Part shown: positions 47,756 to 51,521 of the stretch, in pieces | Layout: each line of letters opens with the position of its first letter | Position numbering within the stretch: the stretch's first letter is position 1 | Assembly (NCBI GenBank): GCA_018691345.1 | Contig: JABGTJ010000016.1 | Location: forward strand, 125-64,124 | DNA length: 64,000 nucleotides | Source: Methanobacteriota archaeon | GTDB lineage: Archaea; Thermoplasmatota; Poseidoniia; Poseidoniales; Poseidoniaceae | Direction of reading: 5' to 3' | The notes under the pieces: generated by a model | Told to the model about the DNA's origin: nothing | What the model saw: only the letters and a program-made list of their open reading frames with translations | The model's database searches: none | Made by a program: the position numbers and the translations under genes

Positions 47756-48841
47756 ATGATACCAAAGGTTGTGCTGTCTGTGAACGCACACCAGCCTACT
47801 GTACTTCGCCCGTCTCTACGCCGAGACCAAAGGGCAGTCAGCGAAGTTCTCGGTGTCGTCATGATGTTGGCCATGGTCGTTACAATCATGGGTGGTGTGT
47901 GGATTTTCCTGAACCCGTATATTTCAGATTTTGAAGACAATACCAATTGGAACAGTGCGAACGGAATAGCCGACCGTTTTGAAGACAGAATCGATGTCGC
48001 TGGAAGCGCACCGGAAGGCACTGGCATCCGCCACACACTCGCACTCAAATCAACCATGGTTCAGCCTGTCGTCAAAGTAGAAACATGGACAATTGCTGCT
48101 GATTTGACACCAGATGAGCGAATTACGGTACGGAACATCAACAACTCAGCAATAGGCATTACAGCCATTAACGAAACTGCTCGAAGCGTCACAATCGAAA
48201 GCCCGATGGGGATTGAGACGCACTCGTTCGGCGCTACGTTCGACGAAGTTGCTGTACAACACCAATCATCTCAAGACCATTGGATGACAATAACGGTATA
48301 CGATGCTGACCAGCGTGAGTTGCACAAAAGTGTCTCCTACATTGTCTCGGGAATTCAAATCTCAACTTCACTTGGCTTGGGAGAGCACCAAATTGCTTTG
48401 GTAAACGACGCTCGTGCCGAACGGTTCCCAAACGAGCCTTGGAAAGTTTCGCAATTCCCAAACATCGAACTTGACACACTGGTCACCGGGGAATTACGAT
48501 TATCGATTGTCCTCACCGATGTTACCATCGACGGCTCCATAGGCTCTGGAGAGAAGATTGGGATGAACATGGTATCTCTTGGACCAATGACGCTCTTCAC
48601 TGGCAATGCTTACCATCTCAAGTTCACGGTAGAAAATGCACTCAATGACCTCATAACTCCACAATACCATGACAAGATGCTGGAAGACCATACACTGAAC
48701 CGGGCGTCAGGAACGCTTGACACGTTTACTGGATACGCACCTTATCTGCGGGCCAGTGGGGCGGATGGATTCACTGTAGAATCTCAACAAAATCAACTCA
48801 TTCTTGAAGTCGATGTAAAGCGTGTGGAGGTCTCGAGATGA
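47756..48841 (+). CDS. Archaeal type IV pilin-like protein (class III signal peptide, DUF1628-type N-terminus)
   Basis: The N-terminus RRDQRAVSEVLGVVMMLAMVVTIMGGVW matches the archaeal pilin pattern (R[GA]VS.V[IL]G followed by a hydrophobic helix). 361 aa. Confidence 0.65.
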   Translation: MIPKVVLSVNAHQPTVLRPSLRRDQRAVSEVLGVVMMLAMVVTIMGGVWIFLNPYISDFEDNTNWNSANGIADRFEDRIDVAGSAPEGTGIRHTLALKSTMVQPVVKVETWTIAADLTPDERITVRNINNSAIGITAINETARSVTIESPMGIETHSFGATFDEVAVQHQSSQDHWMTITVYDADQRELHKSVSYIVSGIQISTSLGLGEHQIALVNDARAERFPNEPWKVSQFPNIELDTLVTGELRLSIVLTDVTIDGSIGSGEKIGMNMVSLGPMTLFTGNAYHLKFTVENALNDLITPQYHDKMLEDHTLNRASGTLDTFTGYAPYLRASGADGFTVESQQNQLILEVDVKRVEVSR

Positions 48842-51048
48842 ACTCATTGCTCCAACGGGACGAGGAGGCAGTCTCAGCTGCTGTTGCTACAGTGCTTCTT
48901 TTCGGCGGTGTGTTATCGATTATTGCCATGATGATGGTGTCATTGATTCCAGTGATTGAAGAACTTGAAGGTTCGATTGAACGGCATGACATGTCATCTC
49001 AAATGACCCTTATGGCCCACCAAACTGCAGCATTAAGCGAAACTGGTATGCCAGGAGATTCGACTGAAATCGATCTCATCCCTGTTGACGGTACACTCAA
49101 CTGGAACATGATGCAAAGCAGCATGTGGTACTCTGCTACATGGGCAGAGGACACGTCATTCCGAGTTCAAGGTGCGCTCGACTACGATGATGAATTGCGA
49201 ATTCGCCATCCAGAATCAATGAACACAGCGGTATGCATCGATGACTTGCGCCTAGGGCCATCGAACCCGTACATATTCACCGTCCCTGAGTGGGTCGACG
49301 AAGTACTCCTCACTGCCTCACCAGGGCTGGCTTTGCCGCTTGGACCAATCGAAGTCGAAGTGTTGAACGGCAGTGATACGCTGTCGGAAATCAAATTGAT
49401 GGTTGACGGCATGCATCGGTTGGATGCAAGTGAACTTGGAGAGACCATCATCCATTCATCACATCAACTGCATCTTTTGTTCTCAGTTGGTAACGGCGGT
49501 ACAACCGTGATTCAGCCCAATGATCCAAGCCCTGTAGACTCCACTGGCAGCTCATGGTCGATTCCCCTACCTGCCGGAGAAAATAAGATTCAAGTCCTCA
49601 GTGAGTCGGCAAATCAAATTACGATTCGGAACGATTCGTCAAACACTTACTATGCGCTTCCATCCAATCAAAACAGAGTTGGGGTCGATTTTACTCACCA
49701 ATTCAACCACTCATCACCGGAAGTCGTTCACGTATCGACGAGTTCACCATCGAGACTAATCTTGCAAACGAATACGGATGCAGGTGTAGGGCAAATGACG
49801 TTGCCAAGCATCGACGGTCAACACCTCGGGCATTCATTCATGACGCCATCTTTTGAAGGTGAACTCGTCTTTTCGAATCCCGGAACCGACAGTGTTACCG
49901 TTACTTGGAGAGGTGGTGGACTTTCTGTTCCTGCGAATCAAACCTCGGCGGTCCAATGGCCACCAGCCGATATCGATGGAGCTCCATTGCTCGATGCGAA
50001 CGGTGATGTCTTTGTCACCTGGAGAAAGAATGCTTCCGGCTCTGGCCTACAAGTCGAACCAGCAGATGACACCGGTGCAACCTCTGGCCAATTACACACA
50101 TTCGAGAACGACCAACTTGGACTCCATCGACTCCACATAACGCATGCAGGATACTACACTGAGTGGAACATGACAGGTAGCACAAACGCCAACGGAACGT
50201 TTCTCGACGATTCAAACCACGAAACCATCGAACTTAGCCAAGGCGTAGCCCAGATTCGAGTGACCGACGGAGATGCATTACGGATATATTCTGTACGGGG
50301 TCAAGATGGATTGCTCCAAGCCATGCATGATGGTGCTCAACGGTGCCTACCGATCAATATTCAAGCCAGTGGCTGGATAAGTACAGACCTCCCTTGGCAA
50401 TCGATGAGTGGGAGAAGTCAAGTTGACCTGAAGAACGCGTGGAGGTCAGGAAGCCATCCTGCAAGCATGCAAATCAGCCTGATTGGAGAGAGCGGTGCTT
50501 CAAACCACGCCACCTTGGGCACAGTGTGGGGATTCCATCTCTCTCGGCTCAGTTACGAATTCGAGTCATCCATTGCTGGTATGGAAGTCGCCTATGCGGG
50601 TGGGGCCGTAGTCACAAATCATCCAGAGTTTGAACCCTATATCGTCGTTTCACCTTCCGACAGAGGAGGACCTGGACCTCGCTTTGCGGCAACAGTGCCC
50701 TCACTTCATCCTACTGCCGACAGCGTCAGTGGTGCAGGCAATATGAATCTCGACATCGAATTAGTCGACCGTTCATCTTTAGCGTCGGCTACGGCTCATG
50801 AAGTGCGAAGAGGGTGGTCGAACCCTTACGGAATTGCAATTGCCCAGTCATCCGCAGATGGACTTGAATCAAGTGAAGATTGGACTGTATATCCTGGCCG
50901 TATTGATTTACTCACCGACTATGTTGGCTGGGTACCCGACCCGTCATACGGCACGTCGGAAGCAGTCTGGCATACCAACGGTGAAGCAATACAATTTACA
51001 CTACAAATTGCAGCACTCAATGCACACATGACGGAGGCGGTCTCTTGA
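48838..51048 (+). CDS. Large pilin-like protein (class III signal-like N-terminus)
   Basis: QRDEEAVSAAVATVLLFGGVLSIIAMMMVSL. The ATGA start/stop overlap with the upstream gene has GGAGG 8 nt upstream. 736 aa. Confidence 0.55.
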   Translation: MNSLLQRDEEAVSAAVATVLLFGGVLSIIAMMMVSLIPVIEELEGSIERHDMSSQMTLMAHQTAALSETGMPGDSTEIDLIPVDGTLNWNMMQSSMWYSATWAEDTSFRVQGALDYDDELRIRHPESMNTAVCIDDLRLGPSNPYIFTVPEWVDEVLLTASPGLALPLGPIEVEVLNGSDTLSEIKLMVDGMHRLDASELGETIIHSSHQLHLLFSVGNGGTTVIQPNDPSPVDSTGSSWSIPLPAGENKIQVLSESANQITIRNDSSNTYYALPSNQNRVGVDFTHQFNHSSPEVVHVSTSSPSRLILQTNTDAGVGQMTLPSIDGQHLGHSFMTPSFEGELVFSNPGTDSVTVTWRGGGLSVPANQTSAVQWPPADIDGAPLLDANGDVFVTWRKNASGSGLQVEPADDTGATSGQLHTFENDQLGLHRLHITHAGYYTEWNMTGSTNANGTFLDDSNHETIELSQGVAQIRVTDGDALRIYSVRGQDGLLQAMHDGAQRCLPINIQASGWISTDLPWQSMSGRSQVDLKNAWRSGSHPASMQISLIGESGASNHATLGTVWGFHLSRLSYEFESSIAGMEVAYAGGAVVTNHPEFEPYIVVSPSDRGGPGPRFAATVPSLHPTADSVSGAGNMNLDIELVDRSSLASATAHEVRRGWSNPYGIAIAQSSADGLESSEDWTVYPGRIDLLTDYVGWVPDPSYGTSEAVWHTNGEAIQFTLQIAALNAHMTEAVS

Positions 51049-51521
51049 ACAGTAAACAATTGCGCAGAGATGAACATGCTGCTGCAACTGAACTTGGATA
51101 CATCTTTACGTTTCTTTTAGGCGTCTTGTTGCTAACAACATTCAGTATTTGGGCGTATCAAATTGAAACCGCCACACGTGAACGTTGGAACGAAAATGCA
51201 ATTCAATCCAACCTCGATGACTTGGCTGCCGCAGTTGAACGAGCCGATGAGGCGAGTCGGATGGGTTCAGTTGAATATGCTGAGAAGGTGACATGGAGAT
51301 TAACAGAAGCAGACGAAGCGAGAATTACGCTTGAACTCACAGACACTTCGATTAATTTAATCCACGAAGGAGGTACGCTTGACACCAGTGTCTCGCTATC
51401 TGGAACTGGGGCAGGATCACACGAAGGTACTGTGGTCCTTGCCGGTGTTACTTCAGTATGGATTGTACACTCAAACGGTGTTACTACCTTGCAATACGAC
51501 AGACCACAATCGTACAATTGA
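51045..51521 (+). CDS. Small pilin-like protein (class III signal-like N-terminus)
   Basis: LRRDEHAAATELGYIFTFLLGVLLLTTFSIWAY. The TTG start overlaps the upstream stop (TTGA), with GGAGG 5 nt upstream. 158 aa. Confidence 0.5.
   Translation: MNSKQLRRDEHAAATELGYIFTFLLGVLLLTTFSIWAYQIETATRERWNENAIQSNLDDLAAAVERADEASRMGSVEYAEKVTWRLTEADEARITLELTDTSINLIHEGGTLDTSVSLSGTGAGSHEGTVVLAGVTSVWIVHSNGVTTLQYDRPQSYN

Follow-up and report, generated by a model that had tools for sequence, protein, structure and literature searches.

A translationally coupled trio of type IV pilin-like genes in a Marine Group II archaeon, probably encoding minor or tip pilus subunits assembled in trans

We analysed a stretch of 64,000 nucleotides (the window) from the genome of an archaeon of the Poseidoniaceae (Thermoplasmatota; order Poseidoniales, Marine Group II; GenBank assembly GCA_018691345.1, contig JABGTJ010000016.1, positions 125 to 64,124 of the forward strand) and, within it, three consecutive genes at positions 47756-51521, hereafter the trio. 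We read all three products as type IV pilin-like proteins that carry class III signals, clearly so in the case of proteins 1 and 2 and probably so in that of protein 3. We propose that the three proteins are minor or tip pilin-like subunits assembled in trans, most likely by a non-archaellar machinery encoded elsewhere in the genome (contigs C91 and C49) that resembles the machinery of the CdiP pilus of Cuniculiplasma divulgatum, and we give this reading a probability of about 65%. A first-pass annotation of the window had taken the sizes of the proteins as a sign of minor or tip pilins, which is still the best reading of them.

Results

A class III signal consists of a short charged leader with Gly or Ala at position -1, followed by a hydrophobic stretch of ~20 residues at the extreme N-terminus. 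Proteins 1 and 2 both show this arrangement and both pass a FlaFind-style rule. In protein 1, a leader that varies among homologues (residues 1-27) precedes a predicted cleavage site between RA and VSEVLGV (the protein reads RA followed by VSEVLGVVMMLAMVV), and the residues V28-S29-E30-V31-L32-G33-V34 are invariant in the alignment of 23 homologues. In protein 2, cleavage is predicted between EA and VSAAVATV (EA followed by VSAAVATVLLFGGVL); R7 and A11-V19 are invariant (the alignments of proteins 1 and 2 comprised 20 to 23 homologues). Protein 1 matches DUF7289 (E=5e-5, 23.4 bits for a cut-off of 27) and Pilin_N (E=4.6e-4, 21.4 bits for a cut-off of 25.2), both in its N-terminal region only, and faintly TIGR02537 (arch_flag_Nterm, the archaellin/pilin N-terminal domain; E=0.012, 15.2 bits for a cut-off of 20). 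Protein 2 reaches 28.0 bits for the DUF7289 cut-off of 27 in hmmscan and 22.4 bits in a six-frame search, the match covering model positions 1-78 of 238 only. The NCBIfam scan of the trio gave nothing useful beyond the TIGR02537 match, and the family scan gave no Arch_flagellin match. The homologues of both proteins come from Candidatus Poseidoniaceae / Poseidoniales (Marine Group II), and a literature search returned no papers on DUF7289 and nothing relevant for Poseidoniales plus pilin.

The AlphaFold2 models of proteins 1 and 2 have the architecture of pilins, that is, a long N-terminal helix followed by a beta-rich domain. In protein 1 the helix spans residues 25-83 and an immunoglobulin (Ig)-like beta domain residues 90-294, with a predicted local distance difference test score (pLDDT) of about 70-93; in protein 2 the helix spans residues 9-68 and a multi-domain beta region residues 119-550 approximately, with a pLDDT of about 80-90. 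In both models the predicted helix of about 60 residues begins at the conserved motif and appears to be of pilin type. These N-termini do not look like ordinary Sec anchors: they match pilin N-terminal models, if weakly, and are predicted to form long pilin-type helices. A profile search of the PDB with proteins 1 and 2 returned nothing significant (best pilin-related match, Natrinema PilA2, E=0.42), and Foldseek searches with the two models returned only generic Ig-like or jelly-roll sandwiches at TM-scores of about 0.1-0.2; finding only such generic sandwiches is consistent with the published head domains of archaeal pilins (PMC4858521).

Protein 3 begins with D-x-x-A-A-[AS]-T-E-L-G-Y-I-F-T-F, of which A-A-[AS]-T-E-L-G-Y-x-F-T-F is conserved among orthologues that all align from an identical first residue. 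Its family is small and lineage-restricted, a remote profile search finding 60 relatives only in 1.84 billion representatives. Around the putative cleavage site the protein reads HA followed by AATELGYIFTF; His at position -2, where orthologues carry E, N or S, fails the FlaFind-style rule. The rule in the form used here is too strict, since it missed the PilA of the C22 locus (see below) and the archaellins of the same genome, and it gives no verdict on protein 3. A class III signal on protein 3 is therefore plausible but unproven, and the earlier assignment of such signals to all three proteins holds for the two that match archaeal pilin N-terminal models and is less certain for the third.

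Each trio protein contains exactly one hydrophobic segment, at its N-terminus and after a charged leader; all three are acidic, and the hydrophobic-segment analysis revealed no C-terminal anchor in any of them. Of the 11,150 open reading frames (ORFs) of the genome, four combine the charged motif common to the trio with a subsequent hydrophobic run, and three of these four are the trio, indicating that their clustering is not due to chance.

The three genes lie on the plus strand and overlap. Gene 1 (47756-48841, ATG start) encodes a pilin-like protein of 361 aa, gene 2 (48838-51048, ATG start) a pilin-like protein of 736 aa and gene 3 (51045-51521, TTG start) a protein of 158 aa with an N-terminal hydrophobic helix. 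The stop of gene 1 and the start of gene 2 share ATGA (48838-48841), and the stop of gene 2 and the start of gene 3 share TTGA (51045-51048). GGAGG ribosome-binding sites on the plus strand lie 7 nt before the ATG of gene 2 (48826-48830) and 7 nt before the TTG of gene 3 (51033-51037); sequence inspection found no GGAGG site ahead of the start of gene 1. The ORF lengths, the overlaps and the two GGAGG sites are all as first annotated. Overlaps of 4 nt or 1 nt are retained at orthologous loci throughout the order, which supports an operon with translational coupling. The annotation had gone further and concluded that the proteins are co-produced stoichiometrically; the overlaps and GGAGG sites bear out the coupled operon and do not prove a fixed stoichiometry.

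Residues 552-736 of protein 2 (window 50491-51048) form a highly conserved C-terminus of ~185 aa that is modelled with a pLDDT below 35. Residues 296-340 of protein 1 (window 48641-48775) are likewise among its most conserved segments and have very low AlphaFold confidence. These conserved segments that AlphaFold leaves unfolded may be inter-subunit contacts, folding only on partner binding.

We then considered the assembly machinery. As first noted, none lies near the trio: the window's contig contains no T2SSE ATPase, no T2SSF platform and, by PF01478, no A24 peptidase. The genome-wide check that the annotation had proposed revealed three type IV filament machineries and an A24 peptidase. 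The archaellum operon (contig C60) contains a confirmed archaellin, an archaellin-fold accessory protein and FlaH. A non-archaellar system (contig C22) comprises a 417-aa ATPase and two small TadC genes; a canonical PilA-type pilin is encoded about 6 kb from it and another on contig C118. The third machinery (C91:1-1077 and C49:4651-7708) has its ATPase at the end of C91, followed by TadC-b, TadC-a and two pilin-like ORFs of ~150 aa; the two contig ends are halves of one operon, which is intact in a closed genome of the same genus (G037, C1:1791200-1796270). Stop codons flagged within the TadC matches raised the possibility of recoding, which we rejected, the flagged stops being an N-terminal alignment overrun.

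At normal thresholds, PF01478 detected no prepilin peptidase in the genome. Weak recurrent matches, motif inspection and the Arc_PepC_II family led to a protein of about 333 aa (C63:54054-55052) with both catalytic Asp motifs, D-H-K-E-R-R-V-K-N and H-G-G-A-D-A-K, and a C-terminal Arc_PepC_II match (E=2.5e-5). Judged by these motifs, it is a putative divergent A24 prepilin peptidase of the FlaK/PibD type, apparently the only one in the genome. Peptidase loci were also located in relatives (L070-L074); in archaellum-only genera the peptidase gene lies directly beside flaJ. A partial second copy (C105:4465-4896), which shares 98% identity with residues 189-332, is probably due to strain heterogeneity or to duplication of a contig in this metagenome-assembled genome (78% complete).

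In the closed genome of the same genus, the trio lies about 136 kb from the peptidase, 216 kb from flaJ and 362 kb from the C91/C49-type operon. The absence of nearby machinery, to which the annotation had drawn attention, is not unusual and is the documented norm: in most archaea pilin genes lie outside type IV pilus operons and the ATPase/TadC modules use pilins in trans (PMC4858521), and pilin genes about 500 kb from a split-platform machinery have been described (PMC12448462). The isolation of the trio is therefore ordinary.

To link the trio to one of the machineries, we relied on its relatives and on its distribution. DUF7289 is found in 155 of 251 Thermoplasmatota genomes, and also matches Haloferax volcanii; full-length members in other Thermoplasmatota have about 280-330 aa. 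At seven loci in six genomes of other Thermoplasmatota families (L049, L051, L054, L056, L062, L064 and L065), DUF7289 genes abut one or two ATPases together with TadC-b and TadC-a, so that members of this family do lie beside pilus genes elsewhere. In a sister order, the succession of a DUF7289 gene, ATPase, TadC-b, TadC-a, a 146-aa protein and a 126-aa protein mirrors the C91/C49 locus. The DUF7289-adjacent ATPases score 474-654 bits against the C91 type, compared with 190-235 for the C22 type and 248-275 for FlaI, and those of the sister order cluster with the C91 type with 100/100 support.

Co-occurrence was counted in one set of 121 Poseidoniales genomes. Protein 2, taken for the trio, is present in 78 of them, the C22 platform in the same 78 and the C49 platform in 77 (all of the protein 2 set except G102). 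FlaJ is present in 76 genomes, with 22 discordant cases (12 with the trio only, 10 with FlaJ only). The trio therefore tracks the non-archaellar systems and not the archaellum, and the co-occurrence that the annotation had proposed to check is borne out, the trio being present or absent together with both non-archaellar systems. The peptidase is found in 87 genomes, the union of the pilus-positive and archaellum-positive genomes minus one that has a flaJ fragment only. The small-genome genera of the sister family are of two kinds: g8-g11 lack any filament system as well as the peptidase, and g13 and g129 have only the archaellum and the peptidase. Pili in the absence of an archaellum occur in genera g6, g7 and g126.

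These distributions bear on two alternatives. The trio could be pilin-like and serve the C22 system, or both non-archaellar systems: the C22 platform shares exactly the 78-genome distribution of the trio, and sharing of pilin sets among archaeal ATPase/TadC modules has been reported (PMC4858521). However, all seven loci that join DUF7289 to a machinery carry an ATPase and platform of the C91/C49 type, and the C22 system already has PilA-type pilins nearby, which makes this partner improbable. We also consider it rather unlikely that the trio forms a surface complex anchored in the membrane, or a short pseudopilus, comparable to the bindosome of Sulfolobus, that only borrows the class III route or keeps an uncleaved anchor. 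Proteins of 361 and 736 aa far exceed the size of major pilins, contacts within a hetero-oligomer are suggested by the conserved C-terminal segments, which stay unfolded when modelled alone, and in Sulfolobales surface proteins other than pilins are known to carry class III signals (PMC4858521). Yet the trio is lost with the ATPase and platform loci while the peptidase persists in archaellum-only genomes, indicating dependence on a pilus assembly motor and not on the peptidase alone.

The position of the trio between giant-adhesin genes had suggested to the first annotator that it presents or tethers these proteins. The trio is part of an island ordered as giant A, giant B, a metallo-beta-lactamase (MBL)-fold gene, the trio, a winged helix-turn-helix (wHTH)-STAND-TPR gene on the strand opposite to the trio, a beta-helix giant, an S8 protease and a giant STT3 fusion. 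This order is retained in all trio-bearing families of the order, as tethering would lead one to expect, with the trio diverging much faster than its neighbours. However, giant B is present in 120 of the 121 genomes, including about 42 that lack the trio, and the giants themselves carry Sec-type signals or C-terminal anchors. Three genomes that lack the trio, G185, G177 and G264, have an otherwise whole island with a clean gap in place of the trio, the MBL stop abutting the STAND-TPR stop; the trio was therefore lost, or never gained, as a unit with the unlinked pilus loci and independently of its neighbours. Tethering of the giants is thus very unlikely. The idea that the trio encodes archaellum accessory proteins of the FlaF/FlaG type, prompted by the Joint Genome Institute names of protein 1 homologues ('flagellin-like protein', 'FlaG/FlaF family flagellin'), is ruled out by the 22 discordant genomes, and the lack of an Arch_flagellin match and the archaellins, accessory protein and FlaH that the C60 operon already has leave it barely credible.

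Discussion

We favour a model in which a single operon with translational coupling would yield the trio proteins together, each being inserted in the membrane by its N-terminal helix. The C63 peptidase would trim them after the conserved Ala, and the trimmed proteins would then enter a non-archaellar adhesive pilus, or prime it, as minor or tip subunits. The machinery would act in trans, its likeliest source being the C91/C49 locus with one ATPase and a platform split in two genes, and the two ~150-aa pilin-like proteins of C49 would be candidate major subunits. In this model, we infer the cleavage, the incorporation into a filament, a position at the tip rather than the base and the choice between the non-archaellar systems.

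Several points weigh against this assignment. The family scores of protein 1 lie below the curated cut-offs, protein 2 exceeds that of DUF7289 by 1 bit and over the N-terminal third of the model only, and their beta domains have no specific counterpart in the PDB. Protein 3 has no Pfam or NCBIfam family match, and its His at -2 is a further difficulty. In Poseidoniaceae no DUF7289 gene adjoins machinery, and co-occurrence cannot separate the C22 from the C49 system. Moreover, the absences of the trio are confined to a few small-genome genera and may therefore represent only one or two losses, within a lineage whose gene set shrank by about 30%.

The closest known system is the CdiP pilus of Cuniculiplasma divulgatum (Thermoplasmatales), which has been imaged by cryo-electron microscopy; it has a highly expressed major pilin and a presumed minor pilin of low expression, with about 500 kb between the pilin genes and the machinery (PMC12448462). 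The likeness is one of layout within the same phylum: in CdiP, as in the C91/C49 and DUF7289-adjacent loci, the platform is split in two genes beside the ATPase or ATPases, and the CdiP combination of two ATPases with a split platform matches DUF7289-adjacent loci elsewhere. In contrast, Poseidoniales have one ATPase, and the CdiP pilins described are a pair (CdiPA and CdiPB) rather than an overlapping trio with a 736-aa member. Euryarchaeal clade-2 systems also occur as two types per genome with pilins in trans (PMC4858521; the PilB4-type and PilB3/PilA systems of H. volcanii). The same survey describes arCOG02911, a presumed minor pilin that is all-beta, FlaFind-positive and of variable length (250-550 aa; PMC4858521); protein 2, with 736 aa, resembles this description and exceeds its size range. 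In the Epd system, several pilin-like proteins with class III signals, which like the proposed trio subunits are not the major subunit, are essential for piliation; they belong to other families, are served by the EppA peptidase with nine transmembrane segments and are encoded within the main pilus locus.

Bacterial minor pilins form tip complexes, such as GspI-J-K of the type II secretion system and FimU-PilVWX with PilY1 of type IVa pili, in which co-expressed pilin-like proteins of unequal size, one of them much larger, prime and cap the fibre. For the set of 361, 736 and 158 aa this is an analogy only, with no match in sequence or fold. Tentatively, the three proteins might assemble into a heterotrimer dedicated to priming or capping a CdiP-like pilus at its tip, with the 736-aa subunit as adhesin and the unfolded C-terminal segments as the interface. 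If true, this would be the first defined archaeal counterpart of the bacterial minor-pilin tip complexes, in a group that ranks among the most abundant planktonic archaea.

Marine Group II archaea are abundant uncultured plankton whose attachment to particles has been inferred from genomes only. The present analysis places a conserved operon of three hypothetical genes in a pilus system, with the confidence stated above, and locates the overlooked prepilin peptidase of the order. The trio does not reveal a new kind of system; remote pilin genes are already documented in archaea. In the streamlined Marine Group IIb genera the trio has been lost along with both of the pilus machineries, and the giant adhesins have been kept; this pattern of loss provides a set of genomic markers for attached versus free-living lifestyles and candidates for structural work.

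Neighbouring genes and other observations

A C6/G7 hairpin, cacccccctaagggggggtg, lies at 47719-47738, within the 47 nt that separate the MBL stop from the start of gene 1. These 47 nt contain no obvious TATA-like box, and the trio may therefore be co-transcribed with the MBL gene. In marine metatranscriptomes, near-identical contigs cover parts of all three genes; being short, of low depth and without strand information, they are insufficient to show co-transcription.

Even the most strongly reduced genomes of the order retain the genes on both sides of the trio (window 35442-46655 and 51523-63925), that is, the giants, the STAND-TPR regulator, the S8 protease and the STT3 fusion. Conservation is extreme for the STAND-TPR gene (E about 1e-250 to 1e-300). 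Giants of about 1,300-2,500 aa with N-termini resembling class III signals lie upstream of DUF7289-type genes in other Thermoplasmatota (L047, L048, L051, L058, L060, L063 and L064; the counterpart at L062 has 957 aa) and may be giant pilin-like adhesins. Finally, the window is archaeal by its gene content, with genes for archaeosine TGT, an archaeal-type PheRS-beta and GluRS.

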